Positions 236 to 11,223 of a DNA stretch of 11,496 nt are shown in pieces (position 1 is the stretch's first letter; every line of letters starts with the position of its first letter). Source of the DNA: a virus (taxonomy: Duplodnaviria; Heunggongvirae; Uroviricota; Caudoviricetes); IMG/VR virus record IMGVR_UViG_2541047847_000003, positions 1-11,496 of that record; one strand, 5' to 3'. The notes below the pieces were generated by a model. The model was not told the origin of the DNA, made no database searches, and worked only from the letters and a program-made list of their open reading frames with translations. A program made the translations under genes and the position numbers.

Positions 236-1134
236 ATTTGCTGGTGGTTTTGCTTAACCGTTATCATTTTTCGGCTATCCGTCATGAAGCTGGTGGATGA
301 TCACGGATAACCAGGCATCCACAGCGCCTTAAAAAGCTGAACCCGACAAACATTTCTGCTTATCGGGTCCGATCGCTCTTTCTGCTCGTGGCAGATGAGT
401 TTATTGGGAGAGGCGGAAACATTGTATCAGGCTATCCCCTTTCTGTGCTGATTTGCATAGTTGTATATAGCTGTGCGTCCACCAGACACGCAGGAATGGA
501 GTTTGTGAGGAACTATAAATCCTGCGCAAATTTTCCCGGCCCACTCAAATTGAGTTTTCCGAAAATATCAACGGCTTAGGCCAAAGCCCGAAAAAGGGCT
601 TTGTAAAAAATTAACCTAATACGGTCGCTTTAACCTACGGTAATCGTTCTGCTTCGGTGTGTGTCCCCTCTGCGGCCATCATGACCATGCCATAACAAAA
701 ACCCCATATTCGTGGTTTTTCTGTGTCGGGGCTATTCTGCTGTTGCCGTGCTGGTGGATATTCTCCGGTATGCGACTCCCCATATCGGCATCAGGCCCAC
801 CAGCGTGAAGCGTTTTTCATTTTTCGCGGGTATAAAAAATTGATGGGGCTGGCAGTCCGGAAGACGTCAGGGTACAGAGATTTGACCCGCCCCTCCCTGT
901 GCATAAGCACAATAAGTAACAGAAGGCGGAATTCCGCCCTCGGTACTCACATATGAGAAACGATATTTCTTCCACCGATACCCTTTATTTGGGTATCGCG
1001 AGTAAGCCCCAAAATCTGGGTGTTACTCTTACTACCCAAACTACGGGTGGTTTCCGTAGTTTCATGGTCGAGTTGCAGATCTGCAACTCACCCACCAGCC
1101 AACGCAATTTTGCGTTATCGGGAATATCAGGAAT

Positions 1135-1419
1135 CTACCGCCGCAACCGTTCCGGCTTCCTCCACTGGTAAGTATTTTTCGCGCTCTCCCTCCGTTGTTG
1201 AGAACGGCGACGGTATGCCAGCAACTCAAGGACTCTGATCCGTATGTCGCGCATATCCACGCCGTTAAGCTCGATACCGTCACGGCGCATCATCTCAGCC
1301 ACCACACGCGCGTAATTTTCGGCTATCACGCTGTCCGGCTGCGTGGCCTCCTGTTTGCTTGATGGTTGTTTGATTCCGGTAACGCGGCGGATTAATCCCA
1401 GCAATTCAGATTCTGTCAT
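1135..1419 (-). CDS. Small protein immediately downstream of terS; possible lambda gpFI-like packaging accessory protein
   Basis: ORF of 94 aa. N-terminus MTESELLGLIRRVTG resembles lambda FI MTKDELIARLRSLG, and VVAEMMRRDG resembles the FI C-terminal VAAEMTERG, both from memory. The C-terminal 40 aa are basic and low-complexity. Confidence 0.45.
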   Translation of the reverse strand: MTESELLGLIRRVTGIKQPSSKQEATQPDSVIAENYARVVAEMMRRDGIELNGVDMRDIRIRVLELLAYRRRSQQRRESAKNTYQWRKPERLRR

Positions 1420-1430
1420 AGTGCGCTACG

Positions 1431-1958
1431 TTACTTGTCTTTATTCGGCTGCAACTTATCCGGCACATTTCCGGTAGTTTCCATCAGGTAATCAGCCAGT
1501 ATCTGCGGGAGGTTGTCGTCAACTCCGGCACTGGCATTACAGGCTTTAGCCACTTCCTTTTTAAGTCCATCCAGCATAGCCGGAGTCATCTGTGGGAAGC
1601 GCCTTTGCATGGTAAGCGGCAGACTGTCCATGATAGATGAAATCTGACTCGCCAGTTTGGAAAGAACATACATACAAAACTCTGTATCAATAACGTCGCC
1701 GCGTTCGCGCTCGTTTTTAAGCTCCTGCGCCTCTGCCTGTGCTGTCAGTAATCTGATCCTGACGCGTAAAAGTTCATCGTCATCAATATCGCCCGTTTCG
1801 TTTGTAATCTGACTAATTGCATTGTTAACCCGATTATCTATTACACTGGCAACATCATAGAATGCCTCACGGCCCTTACGCTCGACGGGAATCACTCCCC
1901 ACTTATCAAACGCAGTGGCGCTTACACGGCAACTTTTTGCCATGTTTTTTTTGTTCAT
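1431..1958 (-). CDS. Terminase small subunit, lambda Nu1 family
   Basis: Translation aligns with lambda Nu1: RLLTAQAEAQELKNERERGDVIDTEFCMYVLSKLASQISSIMDSLPLTMQRRFP versus RLTRAQADAQELKNARDSAEVVETAFCTFVLSRIAGEIASILDGLPLSVQRRFP. N-terminal DNA-binding region is more diverged. Start chosen at the ATG giving MNKKN; the ORF track extends to 1982. Confidence 0.85.
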   Translation of the reverse strand: MNKKNMAKSCRVSATAFDKWGVIPVERKGREAFYDVASVIDNRVNNAISQITNETGDIDDDELLRVRIRLLTAQAEAQELKNERERGDVIDTEFCMYVLSKLASQISSIMDSLPLTMQRRFPQMTPAMLDGLKKEVAKACNASAGVDDNLPQILADYLMETTGNVPDKLQPNKDK

Positions 1959-2083
1959 CAGGTGCAATTTCATTGATACCACAACTTAATTACTGTTTCA
2001 GGTTGGTGTATTGATTGTATTTTTCTCTTCTTATTCATAGAGATAGAGCGAACAACAAAACCACCACCAGCCCCCTGAAAATG

Positions 2084-2148
2084 CTCATAAATAGCGAAAA
2101 CCCGCGAGGTCGCCGCCCCGTAGCCTGCCGGATCGCCGGAAAGGACCC
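2084..2148 (-). other. Lambda-type cos site (cosQ-like and cosN; 12-nt cohesive-end sequence at 2107..2118)
   Basis: Reverse complement of 2084..2120 is ACGGGGCGGCGACCTCGCGGGTTTTCGCTATTTATGA, identical to the lambda cosN junction and left end. 2119..2148 matches the lambda right-end cosQ region at about 27 of 30 positions. Lies about 130-150 bp upstream of terS, as in lambda. Confidence 0.85.
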
Positions 2149-2174: not shown

Positions 2175-2558
2175 TCAACCAATCAACTTATAGCGACCAT
2201 CCCGTGCATTGCGACGTACACGCTCAATCTTGAGGCATAGCGCCGCATCTGGCTTTTTGGGGACAGGTACGCGGCAATATTCAGAAGCTCGAGGAATATT
2301 GTTTATCCAGTCGATCACTTCACTTAAATACCAGGCCTTACGCCCTTCCGTAACCTGTACGCGTTCGGGGAACTCTCCACGAGCCTCAAGGTTTAGCAAT
2401 GTGCGACGGCTAAGGGTAGTAAGTTCCATCACCTGATTCATATCAACAAGGCGTTCACTTAAACGCATTTTGTCAGCAATAGCCTTTAATTCCTCTACTG
2501 CTGGATCCGGATACATCATTTCGGCAATTGGCTTAAGGTCATTGTAATGATTCTGCAT
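2175..2558 (-). CDS. AlpA/Vis-family HTH protein (second copy), 127 aa
   Basis: Central segment LTTLSRRTLLNLEARGEFPERVQVTEGRKAWYLSEVIDWI matches the AlpA-type HTH pattern. GGGGGA Shine-Dalgarno 4 nt upstream of the ATG; sits between the decoration gene and cos. Confidence 0.65.
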   Translation of the reverse strand: MQNHYNDLKPIAEMMYPDPAVEELKAIADKMRLSERLVDMNQVMELTTLSRRTLLNLEARGEFPERVQVTEGRKAWYLSEVIDWINNIPRASEYCRVPVPKKPDAALCLKIERVRRNARDGRYKLIG

Positions 2559-2569
2559 TGTATCCCCCT

Positions 2570-2911
2570 TTACACACGAGCCAGCGGCTGAACAGAAATA
2601 CCTGAGCCAACAAACGCGGCAACCTTTGCCGACAGTTCTCTTACAGACTCAGGCCAGTTCAGAGCATCAACATTTAAAACACCTGTCTTATAAACCTGTG
2701 CCTGTGTTTTTTTCGCTGTGTCGATTTGTACAGCGGAAACATAAACCGCTTTGCCTGCGCTCGTTCCATCCCATACCACTAGCGCACCAGTTGCATCTTC
2801 CTGCATCAGTGGCGTAAACGCAGGTATTACCCCTTTATTGGCTGAAAATATCCCCAGCGTAGTAACCAGTGCTTCAGTGCCAGACATGAGTTCAGTGTAA
2901 TGAGTAGCCAT
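2570..2911 (-). CDS. Head decoration protein, lambda gpD-like
   Basis: 113 aa. FTPLMQEDATGALVVWDGTSAGKAV parallels lambda gpD [25 protein letters not shown]; similar length. GGGGGAG Shine-Dalgarno 9 bp after the MCP stop. Confidence 0.8.
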   Translation of the reverse strand: MATHYTELMSGTEALVTTLGIFSANKGVIPAFTPLMQEDATGALVVWDGTSAGKAVYVSAVQIDTAKKTQAQVYKTGVLNVDALNWPESVRELSAKVAAFVGSGISVQPLARV

Positions 2912-2920
2912 TGCTCCCCC

Positions 2921-3967
2921 TTAGCCAATGCGAACGGTAACAAAACGATTGATGCGGGCCGGTATTGGCTGTGGTGCTGAATGTGTCTGCACATATTCAA
3001 TAGCCGGATCACCAGGCACAATATAGTTTTTCGGTGCAAGTTCGGCTTTAGTCAGCCCCATCCGAATTAGCTCCGGATCCTGAATACCGCCATAAGCGAC
3101 AATCCCCTGAAGAGCCGTATTGCCAAGCACCATCAAATCAGGATCAAGGAAATATTTTTCAGTTCCGTCCTCGTCGGTATAACGCCCGCTGTAAACAACA
3201 ATCGCAACATCGCCCATATACCCTTTAAAACTCACCGAATCACCAAGGTCTTTAAGGGCCGTTTCCAGTTCGGAATTAGAACCTCGACGGGTATCCAGAG
3301 CCTCTTTTACAGCTCTGAATGAGCGGTATTTTTTCCATACATTGCCGCCCATAATAATGATATTAGTGACTCCCTCACTAAATTCTGCGTAGCTCTCAAT
3401 ATCATCATTTGGATCAAAAGATCCTTTATCCTTACCTGACCACTCAGCACCGCCAGACTGAGTGATGATATTTTGTGGTTTAATATTCCAGTCCAGTTCA
3501 TAACGTTCAATACCATCGCCCTCAATGATATTTTTCCCCGTTGTGATTGCCTGAACAGCAAGCCATTCAATACGTGCACGTATAGCTTTAGCCTGATTTA
3601 CAATCGCCTGTTTAACTTTAATATTACGCGCCCCAAAAGCATTGTATTGTTCAGGTGATACACCAGCAGGGCGCACAGCTAACTTATTTGGATCAATGCT
3701 GCTTTTCGGTTTCATATAGCCAGGGCGAATTGTTTTTGATTCGTATCCCTCATCTCGTGAAACTTTACTGCCCACCATAGGAGAGCAAAACGCCGCGATC
3801 GGGATATTTGGATCGTCGATCGTATCAAGAATAATGTCTCTCGATTCAAACATTACCGAGCGAGTGAAAAACAAACTGGTAAACAACGCATTTAATTTTT
3901 TTTGCACATCTTCAGCATTAGCCACCTGCACAAGCTGTGTAGGCGAATATAAATCAACCATACTCAT
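2921..3967 (-). CDS. Major capsid protein, lambda gpE family
   Basis: Long collinear similarity to lambda gpE, for example NIITQSGGAEWSGKDKGSFDPNDDIESYA and AVKEALDTRRGSNSELETALKDLG and GDVAIVVYSG. Start set at MSMVDLY (lambda begins MSMYTT) with AAGAGG just upstream; the ORF track start at 4048 is probably an upstream extension. Confidence 0.9.
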   Translation of the reverse strand: MSMVDLYSPTQLVQVANAEDVQKKLNALFTSLFFTRSVMFESRDIILDTIDDPNIPIAAFCSPMVGSKVSRDEGYESKTIRPGYMKPKSSIDPNKLAVRPAGVSPEQYNAFGARNIKVKQAIVNQAKAIRARIEWLAVQAITTGKNIIEGDGIERYELDWNIKPQNIITQSGGAEWSGKDKGSFDPNDDIESYAEFSEGVTNIIIMGGNVWKKYRSFRAVKEALDTRRGSNSELETALKDLGDSVSFKGYMGDVAIVVYSGRYTDEDGTEKYFLDPDLMVLGNTALQGIVAYGGIQDPELIRMGLTKAELAPKNYIVPGDPAIEYVQTHSAPQPIPARINRFVTVRIG

Positions 3968-4132
3968 CCTCTTTACATTCATTACAAATAATTGTGAATA
4001 TATTCTATTACCGATGTCTGCTATGCGAATACATGCAACCAAGTGCAATGTTGTATAAAATCTGCCGTGACAACTTCAGTGCTGATAATTCGTGTTAATG
4101 TATTTACTTCCTTTGGTCGGGATTTATGTAGC

Positions 4133-4895: not shown

Positions 4896-5116
4896 TGTTC
4901 ACCTTTTGATATTTTATCTTTTAATTCATAATGTTAAGGGGTGAACAGTTTCACAAAAACTATTCACCAACTGTTCACCACTGTTCACCCTTGAAGCTCA
5001 ATAAACAATCAAAAAGGTGAACAGTGAATAGTTTGGTGAACAGTTCATAAATAACTGTTCACCCTATAACATACTGATACAAAAGATATTTATGACAGGG
5101 TGAACAGTGGTGAACA
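4896..5116. repeat. Origin-like iteron cluster: about 10 copies of TGTTCACC/GGTGAACA in both orientations with AT-rich spacers (P4 ori/crr type)
   Basis: TGTTCACC at 4896, 4972, 4982, 5056; GGTGAACA at 4940, 5016, 5035, 5099, 5109; variants at 4961 and 5024. Immediately downstream of the alpha-like gene. Confidence 0.85.
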
Positions 5117-5130
5117 GTTATTCCATAAGT

Positions 5131-6948
5131 TTAATTTTTGCTATCGTCATTAGTGACCGATACACATGATGGCATCCAGTCTTCTGATTCCTCCGTCAGT
5201 GTCACGTTTGAACGCAAACCGTGCTTCGTTTTCCGTTTCATATACTCCCTGCCATATTCCGCCATTGCCCCCGGCATATCTTTACCGAAGCGCGTCAGTG
5301 TTACAGGTTTACCAAACCCATGTGCCCTCATATAAGCCAGATAGGCATGATAGAGATACCTGCGTGGGCTGAATGGCACAATTTCAGCATTACCCACTAA
5401 CAGGCCATCACACATTACCGACGCCATGAGATAGCCGCAGAAGTCCACCAGCGAATCCCCCTCTCGCTTTATCGCCAGTGCTTCTTCAGATTTCTGCTGC
5501 TCATATAACAGGCGTCTGGCTTCGTCCTGGTCAGCAAACCGTGTAAGCAGATGGCGAATCACTACCGCCAACTCACCTTCTATTTTTTCCGCCAGCATTG
5601 GATCGCGTTCGTTCTCCGGTACAACTTCCGAAAAATTGAATATCACCCGACGACGTGAGATCCCCCCGCTGCGGTCACTGAATGACATGGCGTTATTGTT
5701 AACCGCCAGCACTACTGCCGGAATACGCGTTGAGTAGGGGGCTTTGTGTTTCGGGTCAATTGCCACCTTGTCACCGCCTGTAATGGCCTTAATTCCTGCC
5801 CCATCACCAGCGTAGCGGGTCATATCCGGCATGATAATCAGCGAAAAGCCAACCACTAACGCGCGTTCCCTTGCATCTTCCAGCGCCTTCATGCTTGCCG
5901 ATACTGTGTTGGCCTTACCCGCCAGCATGGTGCAAATCTCCGCCATCACGCTTTTACCACTTCCCCCTGGACCTGTTACCTCAATGAATAACTGCCAGTC
6001 GTACCGGTTCGCCAGCACCATGAATAATGCAGCCAGTACGCGATCCGCCTTGCGGTCATTCTCAGCCACCGAACGGCGTAACCACTTCCAGAAATTCGGC
6101 GCATGTGTTGCCAGCGTTTCCCCCTCTGCTGGTGGGCTGAAAGGTAATTCACTGGCAATTAACAACCAGTCGTTTTTGTTATGCTCCCGAAAATTACCTG
6201 TTCTGGTATCAAATACCCCGTTACTGAATCCAATCAGGTTACGGGCTGTATTCCCCATTACAGGCAAACTTAACTTCATGGTATCGACCGCCGATTTAAT
6301 GGCGTTCTGCGAATAGCTGATCTCTGCATCAATGAAAATCTGCGCCATAGCTCGCTGTAATTCTTTATCCTGTACTGGCTCCCATACAACGCCGTTGTAA
6401 TGGTGAACAGTGTCAGAGTCAGCATGAATCGCCAGTTCACCGCCATAATGTGCCAGGAGAACTTCGCCGCGTTGACTTGCTCCCATCTGGTTAAGCGCCA
6501 GTGATGAAGCGTTATCGTCTTTTACCCGCTCTTTTTTCTTTACAGGCAGTTCAACTACCTTTTTCTTTTCCGCCAGCTCTGCCCGTTCACGTTCCAGATA
6601 TTCGCGCCAGTTCTCCCGTTTCTGGCTGTGCATTCCTTCAGGGTAATAATCAGCATCCCTGACACCTGCCGCTGCCAGTTTCTGCCCGATGGTATTAACA
6701 AGCCCCGGACGCAATAACCCCGCCTGATAGAGACGCACGCGATAGCGTCCGTCCGGTACGATTTGCAGGTTGTCCAGTTCGGCAAGTTGTTGCTCTCCAA
6801 GCCAGACAGGAGGCACGTTATCGCCAGCCAGTCGCCCGTCCTGTTCCTGCCACTGCTTCGCATGTGCCCACGCATCACTACCCGCAAAAATGATGACTTC
6901 CGTCATTTTGTCACGCGGCTGGTGTTTTAAATTTGGCGCTTTTTTCAT
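5131..6948 (-). CDS. P4 alpha-like replication protein (primase/helicase family, D5-type P-loop NTPase)
   Basis: Walker A GPGGSGKS and a Walker B-like hydrophobic stretch; adjacent TGTTCACC iterons. Start set at the ATG giving MKKAPNL (GGAGAGAG upstream); the ORF track start at 6963 is a GTG. No primase catalytic motif was identified by eye. Confidence 0.8.
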   Translation of the reverse strand: MKKAPNLKHQPRDKMTEVIIFAGSDAWAHAKQWQEQDGRLAGDNVPPVWLGEQQLAELDNLQIVPDGRYRVRLYQAGLLRPGLVNTIGQKLAAAGVRDADYYPEGMHSQKRENWREYLERERAELAEKKKVVELPVKKKERVKDDNASSLALNQMGASQRGEVLLAHYGGELAIHADSDTVHHYNGVVWEPVQDKELQRAMAQIFIDAEISYSQNAIKSAVDTMKLSLPVMGNTARNLIGFSNGVFDTRTGNFREHNKNDWLLIASELPFSPPAEGETLATHAPNFWKWLRRSVAENDRKADRVLAALFMVLANRYDWQLFIEVTGPGGSGKSVMAEICTMLAGKANTVSASMKALEDARERALVVGFSLIIMPDMTRYAGDGAGIKAITGGDKVAIDPKHKAPYSTRIPAVVLAVNNNAMSFSDRSGGISRRRVIFNFSEVVPENERDPMLAEKIEGELAVVIRHLLTRFADQDEARRLLYEQQKSEEALAIKREGDSLVDFCGYLMASVMCDGLLVGNAEIVPFSPRRYLYHAYLAYMRAHGFGKPVTLTRFGKDMPGAMAEYGREYMKRKTKHGLRSNVTLTEESEDWMPSCVSVTNDDSKN

Positions 6949-7244
6949 TTCTGCTCTCTCCACGCGGCAATCATGTTTTTCAGTTCCTGTAGTTTTTTAT
7001 CCACATCCACACGTGACACATGGTTATTTCTGGAAGTCGGGATTTCCCGCCGGAATCTGCAAATAAAGATCTCCACGTTCAGCGAACTAAGAAATGAATA
7101 GCCATCACGAATAAAATACACACGGTCAAACATCAGTTCTTTTACCGTTACTCTGTTACCGTTCTTATCCAGATAAATAGCGCCGGGGATAATTTTGGGG
7201 TGTGCATAACCGCTGGCAGTCAAGCCAGATAAATATGTTCTCAT
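6945..7244 (-). CDS. Hypothetical protein, 99 aa, translationally coupled to the alpha-like gene
   Basis: Stop overlaps the alpha start (ATGA); no recognisable motifs. Confidence 0.55.
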   Translation of the reverse strand: MRTYLSGLTASGYAHPKIIPGAIYLDKNGNRVTVKELMFDRVYFIRDGYSFLSSLNVEIFICRFRREIPTSRNNHVSRVDVDKKLQELKNMIAAWREQK

Positions 7245-7767: not shown

Positions 7768-7863
7768 AGCTACCTCGATACGCTTTCTATCGTTGGTGGT
7801 TAGAAGCCCGGTTAGTGTTAGCGCACTGCCGGGTTTCGTCGTTTCTGCACCTTGCATCAACAA

Positions 7864-8822: not shown

Positions 8823-9677
8823 TTAATTTTCATTAGATAACATTTTTCTTATTTTTTCTAAAGAATCGCTGCGCATTATTTTTTCTAAGAAGGGTTTTAC
8901 AGTCTGAGCAATAGCAAAGGTGTCCTTTTCACCATCAGGATACAAAGATACGGCAAGCACCCCTAATGAAATTTTTCTATCTGTAGACAACTCCCAAGAT
9001 AATAAGTCAATTAATGGGATTATCTTATAATCAATAATTTTACGTCGTATGCTCTCCCAACTTCCTGCAATTGGTTTGTCTGGCTCAACAATTGAAAGTT
9101 CACTACGCCATTTTGGTAATAGTTTTGTAAACGCTTCAATCAACTCATCATCTCTGTTATGTAGTAAGTCAACAGAAACAAGCATATTATCTAATGTATC
9201 AGAAAGGAGATTCACTGGTTCACGCATCACAGCCCAAAACATCCCATTATCTTCTGATATTAAACTTCCAACCATCTCATTATCTATGATGATTGGTTTA
9301 TCCTTCCAATATCCTCTTTCCGCAGTCAGTTTATTAATCATTGATATATCAAACCTTGTTACAGGTTTAATTCCATCATCATAACTTAGCTCAATTAACT
9401 TCGGCTGCACTTTATGGTCATATTCTTTTTGTTTATCACAAAACCAATCGTCTTCTTTCAGCTCTCCAAATGGATCCCCATAATTATTATGCAACGGGTA
9501 TTCAGCACCAAACATAAAACCATATTCAGGCATCTCAGAATGTTTCATTGTTAAATCATCTTGTCGCCAATATAATTGGCGAAATAGATCTTTATCCGAC
9601 AAGTTTTCTAGGCAATCATATTTGCCTAAATCAAATGACTTTGGTAAATCTTTTTTACTATTTACTTTTTTCGTCAT
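8823..9677 (-). CDS. Hypothetical 284-aa protein, AT-rich cargo gene immediately downstream of int
   Basis: Long ORF whose start overlaps the int stop by 4 bp. Visibly more AT-rich than the neighbouring genes (not computed). No motif I recognise. Confidence 0.7.
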   Translation of the reverse strand: MTKKVNSKKDLPKSFDLGKYDCLENLSDKDLFRQLYWRQDDLTMKHSEMPEYGFMFGAEYPLHNNYGDPFGELKEDDWFCDKQKEYDHKVQPKLIELSYDDGIKPVTRFDISMINKLTAERGYWKDKPIIIDNEMVGSLISEDNGMFWAVMREPVNLLSDTLDNMLVSVDLLHNRDDELIEAFTKLLPKWRSELSIVEPDKPIAGSWESIRRKIIDYKIIPLIDLLSWELSTDRKISLGVLAVSLYPDGEKDTFAIAQTVKPFLEKIMRSDSLEKIRKMLSNEN

Positions 9678-10894
9678 TGTATCCCTCTCAATATCACAAT
9701 ATTTTCATTATATCCTGCAATCATATCAAGACGCTCAACCCATAGATGCAGTGCGTCCCGTTTCGCCTGCAAATAGCGTGAATGGTTATAGGTTTTTTGC
9801 TGACCTGGCATCTGATGCGCTGTGATGTGCTCCACGATATGCGGATCGACACCTAAATCATTCAGCATAGTTGTAAACGTGTGTCGGAAATCATGCAGCG
9901 TCCAGTGTTCCTGCTTAAGCCGCTTATGCGCATTTCGTCCATATTGCGCCACCGTGGTATCTTTTTTCAGTTCGCCGAGTAATAACCCAGTGTGTGCGTT
10001 TTGCTCCACCAGCTTCTGAATGAACGGCAAAATACCATCAGGAATAGGTCGGAATATTGTTACCTTCGTTTTGCTGTGCTCTTTTGGCACTGTCCACAAC
10101 ATTTCTTTCAGATCCCATTCTTTGATCTCTGAAAGTCTGATCTCTGCCGTTCTGCACCCGAACACAATTAACAAGCGCATTAACGCACTGTAATAGGGAG
10201 CGAACACATCACCATCAATAGCGCGTAGAATTTCTTTTAGTTCGCTGTTGCTGTGCACTCTCTCGCGGATTTCTGCTCTCTTACCCACATCAGTAACGAT
10301 CAAATCGTCCAGGGCGTTGCTAAACGCGTAGCGCCGCCTGCGGCAAAACTTTAGCGCCTGTTTGCATGTCTGCATGACATGGCCCGCTGCTACTGGTGCT
10401 TTTTTTCGTACGCGGTCAAAACATGCGATCCACTGCCTTGTATCACACTTATCAAGGGGAATTGCCCCGATATGGCAAATGATGTGCTTATCCATACGCT
10501 GCACCAGCTTTATGTAATCTTTGCGGTTATCCTTCGCGTATTCCTCCAGCCAGTAGTTAATCGCTTCCTTCACCGTAACGGGTTTTAGTGCTTCCTGTAC
10601 TGTGGCGCACAACTCATACCGAGGGTTTTTACCCTCAGCCAGCCATGCCCGGCACTGTGTTCGCTTTTCCCTTGCAGATTTCAGCGACAATTCCGGGTAA
10701 GCCCCCAGCTTTAACCGCTCTGCGGCAACCTCACGGCCTCCCGTTCGGTACCGGAAATACCAGGTTAATTTACCTCCCTTTGAGTGTTTAATCTCCAGCC
10801 CGCCCCCGTCGGAGTAAAAACGTTCTTTTTCTGCCTGGACAGCCACCAATTTTTTTAACGTTGAATCGCTCAGTTTGTTTAGTGCTTTTCCCAC
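9674..10894 (-). CDS. int: Tyrosine recombinase, P4-type integrase family
   Basis: 406 aa. N-terminal arm-binding-type region (GGKLTWYFRYRTGGREV...LGAYPELSLKSAREK); C-terminal catalytic motifs HDFRHTF and YNHSRY; GTG start. Confidence 0.9.
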   Translation of the reverse strand: MGKALNKLSDSTLKKLVAVQAEKERFYSDGGGLEIKHSKGGKLTWYFRYRTGGREVAAERLKLGAYPELSLKSAREKRTQCRAWLAEGKNPRYELCATVQEALKPVTVKEAINYWLEEYAKDNRKDYIKLVQRMDKHIICHIGAIPLDKCDTRQWIACFDRVRKKAPVAAGHVMQTCKQALKFCRRRRYAFSNALDDLIVTDVGKRAEIRERVHSNSELKEILRAIDGDVFAPYYSALMRLLIVFGCRTAEIRLSEIKEWDLKEMLWTVPKEHSKTKVTIFRPIPDGILPFIQKLVEQNAHTGLLLGELKKDTTVAQYGRNAHKRLKQEHWTLHDFRHTFTTMLNDLGVDPHIVEHITAHQMPGQQKTYNHSRYLQAKRDALHLWVERLDMIAGYNENIVILRGIQ

Positions 10895-10928: not shown

Positions 10929-10995
10929 AAACTGACCACACAACTGACCACACATTTCGCTGAAACTCGGCAAACAACAACGAACAGCAACAAAC
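10929..10995. repeat. int-proximal arm block: tandem AACTGACCACAC x2 plus CAACAACGAACA-type repeats; homologous to 161..235
   Basis: AACTGACCACAC at 10929..10940 and 10941..10952, about 30 bp upstream of the int start. Confidence 0.6.
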
Positions 10996-11082: not shown

Positions 11083-11096
11083 ATACGGGTATTTCT
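11083..11096. other. attR core: ATACGGGTATTTCT
   Basis: Identical to 82..95; continuous on its right with chromosomal thiM leader sequence. Confidence 0.75.
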
Positions 11097-11127
11097 CAGC
11101 CTTCACAAAGAAGGGCACCCCGAGTCG
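11083..11127 (-). promoter_or_regulatory. thiM: 5' part of the thiM TPP riboswitch aptamer, separated from its 3' half by the island
   Basis: Reverse complement reads CGACUCGGGGUGCCCUUCUUUGUGAAGGCUGAGAAAUACCCGUAU, the 5' half of the thiM aptamer including the conserved CUGAGA element. Confidence 0.8.
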
Positions 11128-11223
11128 TTTGGTTGCGATAATAAATCGCAGAGGAGGATGGTAATGTCCAGCGCACGCGTTGTAAACGGGGAAAAACGGC
11201 GGTATTACAATAACGTTGTGAAA

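Follow-up and report, generated by a model that had tools for sequence, protein, structure and literature searches.

The DNA analysed here, which we call the window, is a stretch of 11,496 nucleotides from a virus. A preliminary description of it reported four perfect or near-perfect hairpins or palindromes at positions 975-1116, downstream of an apparent terS-FI operon, and offered three explanations: a structured 3' UTR, a small RNA, or palindromes to which proteins bind. The question raised by this locus is which explanation is most plausible and, in particular, whether the hairpins act as RNA or as DNA.

The satellite and its non-coding end

The window is a PICI-like phage satellite of E. 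coli with a cos site, judged from its gene set and from a segment at 2085-2118 that matches the outermost 34 nt of the left end of lambda without mismatch. A gene for SSB lies on the minus strand, as do the following features:

9674-10894, minus strand: integrase gene
5131-6963, minus strand: P4-type primase gene
2921-4048, minus strand: major capsid protein gene, lambda E-like
2570-2911, minus strand: decoration protein gene, D-like
2175-2558, minus strand: AlpA-type regulator gene
2085-2118, minus strand: lambda-type cos (cosN), matching the lambda left end at 34/34 nt
1431-1982, minus strand: small terminase subunit gene (terS, Nu1 family; Pfam PF07471, E = 1e-24), in agreement with the annotation of the H1 record
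1135-1419, minus strand: gene of 94 aa in PHROG 1561 (phrog_1561), whose label gives no function; last gene of the packaging operon

The island is bordered by a 14-nt direct repeat, ATACGGGTATTTCT, at 82-95 and 11083-11096, and is inserted in the TPP riboswitch of thiM, whose 3' half is at 35-122 on the minus strand, beside thiM (34.4 bits with the Rfam TPP model, which is below the gathering score). From the sequence, we take the right end (11097-11135, minus strand) to be the 5' half, next to rcnR. This 5' half, presumably along with the promoter, has been displaced by 11 kb to a position beside rcnR. Any read-through from the packaging operon would head towards thiM. Related islands are found beside thiM in two further E. 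coli strains (loci L002 and L005).

A 66-nt direct repeat (161-226 and 10930-10995, 86% identical) that contains AACTGACCACAC twice is present ~65-90 bp inward of each att core; these repeats are candidates for integrase arm-type sites on both arms. Iterons of the form GGTGAACAG are repeated at 4940-5128, adjoining the primase gene. They are presumably of the P4 ori/crr type, with TGTTCACC iterons, and the segment is a probable origin of the island. Rfam gave a weak match to the SymR antitoxin RNA at 7768-7840 on the plus strand (32.8 bits versus a gathering score of 61, E = 0.004), and ARAGORN found no tRNA or tmRNA genes in the window.

The hairpin cluster sits in an ORF-poor island end of ~1 kb, directly downstream of the packaging operon. 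The preliminary description therefore placed the cluster correctly, but its identification of the last gene as FI is only faintly backed: the 94-aa protein resembles lambda FI at E = 0.06, with an N-terminal MTxxEL and QPDxVI. No similarity of this protein to lambda W was detected. A phage collection contained no DNA match to 900-1420 and a single weak protein match to the 94-aa gene, and scanning a contig collection with the 94-aa protein gave zero matches. The gene is the usual last gene in several satellite types. In the window, its stop codon is 18 nt from hairpin 4, the last of the features listed here:

922-941, minus strand: terminator-like hairpin GAGGGCGGAATTCCGCCTTC, then a U-rich tail TGTTACTTAT (from terminator scans)
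976-983/991-998, strand not set: hairpin 1, CGATACCC/GGGTATCG, 8 bp, perfect, with a 7-nt loop
1000-1028: hairpin 5, GAGTAA..CCCA/TGGG..TTACTC, imperfect, with a 2x2 internal loop (from minimum-free-energy folds)
1029-1044: invariant 16-mer TTACTACCCAAACTAC, a partly unpaired linker between hairpins 5 and 2
1038-1046/1054-1062: hairpin 2, AAACTACGG/CCGTAGTTT, 9 bp, perfect
1070-1077/1082-1089: hairpin 3, GAGTTGCA/TGCAACTC around GATC, holding a 16-bp palindrome
1092-1099, minus strand: exact Chi octamer GCTGGTGG, between hairpins 3 and 4
1101-1116: hairpin 4, AACGCAATTTTGCGTT, with 7-nt arms AACGCAA/TTGCGTT and a 2-nt centre

All four hairpins reported previously are found where they had been placed, and are perfect or near-perfect. 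However, two are longer than described: the second, given as ACTACGG/CCGTAGT at 1040-1060, is really a 9-bp stem at 1038-1062, and the perfect 16-bp palindrome GTTGCAGATCTGCAAC at 1072-1087 extends outward to 1070-1089. The 16-mer at 1101-1116 is not a perfect palindrome, since its arms flank a 2-nt centre. Hairpin 2 could alternatively pair as ACTACCC/GGGTAGT. Hairpin 5, the minus-strand Chi at 1092-1099 and the terminator-like hairpin at 941..922 had been missed.

Within 142 nt there are three perfect stems of at least 7 bp, as compared to 0.035 in shuffled sequences, and three such stems were reached in 0 of 2000 shuffles. The density of perfect stems is 21 per kb in the cluster, whereas the part of the window with genes has 0.71 per kb. 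Folding gave z-scores of -7.9 for RNA of the plus strand (965-1125), -6.3 for RNA of the minus strand (915-1134) and -7.5 for DNA.

Several simple explanations of the cluster were rejected. That the four reported hairpins have no clear U-run is correct; none passes a terminator scan on either strand, and they are not canonical intrinsic (Rho-independent) terminators; the sole hairpin that passes is the separate one at 941..922 on the minus strand. A cos site is ruled out by the location of cosN at 2085-2118, and Int arm sites by the fact that the conserved core described below accompanies at least six different integration sites and that its distance to the end of the island varies. As to a MITE, no terminal inverted repeats were seen by eye, and no empty site could be matched. 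A resemblance of hairpin 4 to a PurR or LacI-family operator was considered and dropped, because the spacing of the half-sites is 2 bp too short and the stems vary among copies. An Rfam search of 900-1200 gave no match even at E-values up to 1.

Conservation and spread of the hairpin core

Alignments of copies define a core of ~130 nt, at ~972-1100 of the window, that comprises hairpins 1, 5, 2 and 3. Hairpin 4 is outside the core, and is a member of a repeated family of hairpins with variable stems, which we call unit hairpins. Positions 900-1180 of the window are matched in 1367 of 5426 complete E. coli genomes (in 428 over at least 80% of their length), with a median of one place per genome. 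The record NZ_CM135151, from a strain that carries this island, agrees with the window at 100% of these positions. With pattern scans of viral and metagenome contigs, core copies in E. coli, viral and metagenome DNA total 182. These copies occur in E. coli/Shigella-type sequences only, and form two clades, at >=90% and ~78% identity. We sought additional divergent copies using a second viral pattern and a metagenome scan, and found only copies at these same levels of identity. A scan of 596 Gb of contigs with the 16-mer TTACTACCCAAACTAC alone produced matches in unrelated phyla, but these are chance matches because the pattern is too short for that amount of sequence. The 16-mer occurs once in the window, and a covariance model built from the core (R1) detected no second core copy there. 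Applied to related loci that lack the core, R1 gave weak matches only, anchored on generic unit hairpins.

The context of the core is also conserved. Of 178 copies for which this could be tested, 168 are in the same orientation beside the 94-aa gene, i.e., within 700 nt of it and with the gene convergent to the core's plus strand. The ten loci that we fetched have the same arrangement, yet they represent at least six integration sites, which are next to or within thiM, clpS/cspD, tRNA-Ile/mug, phoQ, ydgV/tqsA and a prophage terminase gene. In addition, the gene upstream of the 94-aa gene varies among loci (TerS, TerL, capsid or DUF1441). At one locus (L007, NZ_CP027454, positions 1-570), the related satellite directly adjoins a truncated prophage terminase gpA gene, and this layout fits the 'helper-embedded' satellite configuration described in a published study (PMC10111431).

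The core is frequent, but not obligatory, because 31 of 47 related loci with sequence downstream of the 94-aa gene are without it. It is joined to three mutually unrelated left flanks and to several right flanks, with CCACC borders on both sides, and the left flank with the hairpin at 941..922 accompanies 115 of the 182 copies. This comparison of copies shows the core to travel between satellites as one unit. The sequence next to it is less stable: in relatives, the place of hairpin 4 is taken by GTGCA/TGCAC, GGCG/CGCC, ACCCA/TGGGT or GCGCA/TGCGC, and the Chi at 1092-1099 is changed to CCATTAAC, CTACCAGC or CCACCAGT, being lost in many copies. Other satellites carry arrays of unit hairpins. 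Two core copies in the same orientation, ~434 bp apart, were observed in L144 (978-1451), and also in L135, L161 and L181. These paired copies flank an AT-rich segment with GCGGGTTAT iterons, which looks like a replication origin, and the same segment is found downstream of the 94-aa gene, without the core, in L228, L232 and L285.

Median DNA identity is 96% for the core and 85% for the 94-aa gene, and the core has the higher value in 142 of 145 loci. The preliminary description had raised the prospect that the stems are not conserved in related elements; instead, the region that contains them is more conserved than the neighbouring gene. The 16-mer is unchanged in 30 of 30 distinct aligned copies, including those of the ~78% clade.

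It might seem that such a region encodes a protein. The plus-strand ORF at 953-1171 (72 aa) is free of stop codons across the core in 50 of 50 copies, a natural deletion of 9 nt is in frame, and 7 of the 16 codons that differ from the divergent clade are changed synonymously. However, changes within the main clade consist of 0 synonymous and 9 non-synonymous ones, variable sites are distributed 16/8/15 over codon positions 1/2/3, the start codon is missing in flank type c and the C-terminus is wholly different between copies. Moreover, no Shine-Dalgarno sequence is visible, the ORF has no Pfam or PHROG match, RefSeq annotations of related loci do not call it and, although more than 1000 genomes carry the region, a set of 5.8 billion proteins includes just 17 rare calls of this ORF, each with an identity of 73% or more. 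We therefore regard it as very unlikely that this ORF encodes a small protein and that the hairpins are incidental to it. Coding was also rejected for the plus-strand ORF at 1020-1238 and for the minus-strand frames.

We next consider which aspects of the hairpins are conserved. The loop of hairpin 1 varies freely (TTTATTT, CAAATTT, AAAATAT, TAATATT), and its stem is kept across copies, with double changes at two pairs: C-G to T-A, and A-T to C-G, the latter in two contexts. Hairpin 5 is mostly invariant and has no compensatory change. In hairpin 2, the natural 9-nt deletion keeps the AAACTAC/GTAGTTT arms (as AAACTAC-NN-GTAGTTT) and reduces their spacing from 11 to 2 nt. The stem of hairpin 3 is invariant except for one G-U pair in the divergent clade, and its centre varies (GATC, AATC, AATT). 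Overall, double changes affect 5 of 41 pairs, mainly in hairpins 1 and 4, and 22 are invariant. No shuffle and no slid control reaches the observed covariation score, but RNAalifold assigns a covariation term of only -0.22 kcal/mol; covariation is thin because divergence is low. In summary of the structural checks suggested in the preliminary description, the excess of folding is strong on both strands, whereas covariation is sparse.

These data also bear on whether the core has any function of its own. It could be a recently spread relic that hitch-hikes at satellite ends, with palindromes that persist because template-switching during replication restores imperfect ones. We consider this rather improbable. 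The narrow and shallow spread (two clades, E. coli/Shigella-type only), the 31 of 47 related loci without the core and a mismatch spectrum that resembles plain mutational decay would all be compatible with a relic. On the other hand, a relic does not account for a core that is more conserved than the adjacent coding gene in nearly all loci, for an orientation and position that are constant over at least six integration sites and several packaging-module types, or for the selective retention of stems in the face of a variable loop in hairpin 1.

RNA-level and DNA-level readings

Scans of both strands detected no sigma-70-like promoter in the window or in three relatives, and therefore read-through from the 94-aa gene is the simplest source of a transcript. 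A scan found no terminator between the stop codon of the 94-aa gene and position 941. Beyond the core, the minus-strand terminator-like hairpin with its U-rich tail is present in the window and in the commonest flank type (flank a). The most divergent clade, the L003 type, is without the U-rich tail, and the scan shows no terminator there; for flank type b, the scan hits only the plus strand in the vicinity of the core. U-tracts after hairpins are rare on both strands (9/182 and 7/182).

Because the scans found no terminator between the stop codon and 941, and no promoter-like site on either strand, RNA polymerase that has transcribed the minus-strand genes terS and 94-aa would be expected to continue through 1134 to ~920. 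The resulting transcript would bear five stable stem-loops, and its end would be set by the terminator-like hairpin (941..922). The stacked stem-loops would most likely shield the 3' end of the operon from 3'-to-5' exonucleases and mark the end of the transcription unit; REP/BIME elements at the ends of E. coli operons have both of these roles. The high conservation and the invariant, partly unpaired 16-mer may additionally leave room for a regulatory RNA derived from the 3' UTR.

Our tentative interpretation, which we would not rate as high as an even chance, is thus that the hairpins form a structured non-coding 3' UTR that ends the packaging operon of the satellite. The excess of structure, conservation at the level of hairpins, the lack of promoter-like sites, the terminator-like hairpin that follows on the minus strand, the more stable folding of minus-strand RNA described below and the exclusion of coding all argue for it. 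The position and orientation of the core, constant despite a varying upstream gene and at least six integration sites, also point in this direction. A mere stabilizer of mRNA is a less comfortable fit, in that 96% identity in the unpaired parts would not be needed. Against a 3' UTR in general are the thin covariation, the lack of a strand bias, symmetry that continues into the loop centres, the missing tail in the L003 type and the plus-strand scan hit of flank type b.

The question of strand deserves particular attention. Among the hairpins of 97 related end regions, G-T and A-C mismatches number 21 and 24, respectively, and they are equal in the core too, so wobble pairs favour neither RNA strand. 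RNA of the minus strand folds more stably than that of the plus strand in 37 of 39 variants, but a G+U-rich composition may alone explain this difference. Dyad symmetry often reaches the centre of the loop, which is beyond what an RNA hairpin uses, although this statistic is inflated by loops of A and T only. On covariation and wobble data, action at the RNA level and at the DNA level are inseparable.

If the plus strand were the active one, the core could be an independent small RNA of ~150 nt, convergent with the 94-aa gene, that starts just upstream of hairpin 1 and ends at hairpin 4; its seed would be the C/U-rich linker CUCUUACUACCCAAAC, which is invariant. At the place of hairpin 4, several relatives have a hairpin with a T-run behind it on the plus strand (GCGCAATTTTGCGC TTTGCTTT; AGCTCAATTTTGAGCT TTGCTTTAAG), one of which is flagged by the scan, but in the window hairpin 4 is followed by TATCGGG, with no U-run. 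Similarly, hairpins 5 and 3 contain G-U pairs that suit the plus strand, but equally many mismatches favour the minus strand, and the plus strand folds less stably. The three left-flank types are mutually unrelated and have no promoter-like site upstream of the core. Rfam gave no match, and neither the island nor lambda yielded a complementary target: the 17-nt linker has no near-match elsewhere in the island on either strand, and in lambda there is no complementary site of at least 12 nt, and one 11-mer versus 2.6 expected by chance. Regulatory RNAs are nevertheless known from satellites, the CI RNA of P4 being an example. A small RNA encoded by PLE is reported in a preprint (bioRxiv 10.1101/2022.04.08.487710). 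On balance, we find a separate plus-strand small RNA quite improbable.

The alternative at the DNA level is of a different nature. Here, the palindromes would function as DNA, either duplex or extruded, in an array of palindromes, Chi sites and IHF sites that is specific to satellites and comparable to BIME/RIP. Such an array could shape or protect the island end and serve as a scaffold for homologous recombination that swaps end modules and cargo, and the core would be uniform because it is a frequent crossover segment. We regard this alternative as a serious rival, though somewhat less probable than the 3' UTR.

Much of the evidence for it comes from 97 distinct end regions of related satellites. 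Perfect hairpins occur there at 5.4 per kb, as compared to 0.33 in shuffles (16 times the expected number), and there are 125 Chi octamers (2.2 per kb) versus 1.1 expected. This Chi density is ~10 times that of the E. coli chromosome. The Chi sites are oriented: those within 100 nt of the gene lie on the sense strand (33 to 0), those further out on the antisense strand. Matches to the IHF consensus number 56 on one strand and 2 on the other, versus 2.7 expected in total (~20-fold). A typical unit in related satellites, in the sense of the gene, consists of the stop codon, the IHF-like site TAACNNGTTGATA, a hairpin and the Chi GGNNGCTGGTGG; in the window, hairpin 4 and the Chi at 1092-1099 are one such unit. 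The IHF consensus usually adjoins the hairpin and Chi of the unit in the end regions of loci L210-L289, and tandem units of ~58 bp are visible, e.g., in L213. The absence of a wobble bias, the symmetry that runs to the loop centres, the two core copies that bracket an iteron-rich, origin-like insert in some relatives and a pattern suggestive of mosaic exchange (three left flanks, several right flanks, CCACC on both sides and a core more conserved than the gene) likewise favour this alternative.

The hairpin cluster itself, however, fits this picture less well. The region 975-1116 holds one Chi only, which is lost in many copies, and no exact IHF consensus. The IHF consensus WATCAANNNNTTR has no match within 975-1140, and its sole match in the window is at 566-578 on the plus strand; relatives have TATCAACCAGTTA at the equivalent place. 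Furthermore, the symmetry within loops is subject to the inflation noted above, and a constant orientation relative to the operon is not required by a DNA-level model. As for classical duplex operators, the replacement of the hairpin 4 stem disfavours them, as does the 9-nt deletion in hairpin 2: arms that are kept despite a change in spacing from 11 to 2 nt are evidence against a duplex operator with fixed geometry. Among the three explanations offered in the preliminary description, the structured 3' UTR thus fits best, the small RNA is weaker, and protein-binding palindromes of the classical kind are disfavoured.

The Chi excess is not confined to the island end. The whole window has 13 Chi octamers in 11.5 kb versus 0.4 in shuffles, where the chromosomal average would predict ~2.5. 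Their positions are:

240, 289, 750, 4539, 6128 and 7648, plus strand: Chi
797, 1092, 2064, 4565, 5445, 8393 and 10006, minus strand: Chi

One Chi is located between cosN and terS, at a distance of 14 nt from where the cos segment identical to lambda ends. Literature searches on Chi, palindromes and IHF gave no report of Chi richness in satellites.

A more speculative idea, which we believe to be unlikely, is that the end region, including the hairpin module, is a purpose-built element of an undescribed kind. It could take the form of a conserved regulatory RNA derived from the 3' UTR, which would be produced only when the packaging operon fires. It could also be an ordered IHF-palindrome-Chi array, which would control how RecBCD treats satellite DNA and drive the exchange of end modules and cargo between satellites.

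Comparison with known systems

The hairpins are real, conserved and satellite-specific, and we found no description of the non-coding ends of E. coli phage satellites in the papers searched. Such satellites are abundant, and work on the roles of their proteins is under way. With 130 nt of non-coding sequence that exceeds the neighbouring gene in conservation, the module is a candidate for a cis- or trans-acting part of the satellite life cycle. If it acts as RNA, it would to our knowledge be the first regulatory RNA in this class of satellite. As a DNA element, it would connect RecBCD/Chi biology with the survival and mosaic evolution of satellites. If it is merely the hairpin-rich tail of an operon, it would be ordinary.

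Satellite-encoded structured non-coding RNAs are an established kind of molecule, as exemplified by the P4 CI RNA and the PLE small RNA. The hairpin module has no sequence or Rfam relation to either, is located at the end of a late operon, and its RNA product is putative. Small RNAs derived from 3' UTRs, such as CpxQ and SroC in enterobacteria, are a further parallel: they are conserved structured segments from stop codon to terminator, have a conserved unpaired stretch and lack a promoter of their own. The layout of a stop codon followed by a U-tailed hairpin on the same strand is present in the window and in flank-a copies, and is absent in the L003 type. The satellite module differs from the CpxQ/SroC type in that it is much more hairpin-dense, its tail is not kept in the divergent clade and no target was found.

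In terms of Chi, the best comparison is with the Chi-rich lambdoid phages of the LLS type (Genome Res 2025, PMC12315714), which have 23 Chi, 20 of 23 in one direction, with a cluster at the right end. Both are mobile elements with a lambda-type cos and a large excess of Chi, which is presumably tied to RecBCD. In contrast to LLS, Chi sites in the satellite are split 7 to 6 between the strands, and are concentrated at the non-coding end in both orientations, with 5 of the 13 within the first 1100 bases. The words 'hairpin' and 'palindrom' have 0 occurrences each in the text of PMC12315714.

By analogy, the hairpin module would work most like REP/BIME elements, without being one of them. REP/BIME elements (including IHF-binding RIP/RIB) are short palindromic units, frequently arrayed, that lie in the 3' untranslated part of operons and accompany IHF sites, and they both stabilize the upstream mRNA and bind DNA proteins. 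The satellite elements share the palindromic units, the location at the 3' end of an operon and the same ambiguity between RNA and DNA. REP sequences, however, have a shared consensus and hundreds of intergenic copies in every E. coli chromosome, and on this basis we rejected the possibility that the module is a REP element: it is set apart by its unit stems and by its distribution, with a median of one place in each of the 1367 of 5426 complete E. coli genomes that carry it. The two kinds of sequence appear unrelated, and the satellite stems differ from unit to unit, with no single consensus. The satellite elements are also confined to phage satellites and tightly associated with Chi, and the 130-nt core consists of four different hairpins in a fixed order, as opposed to one repeated unit.
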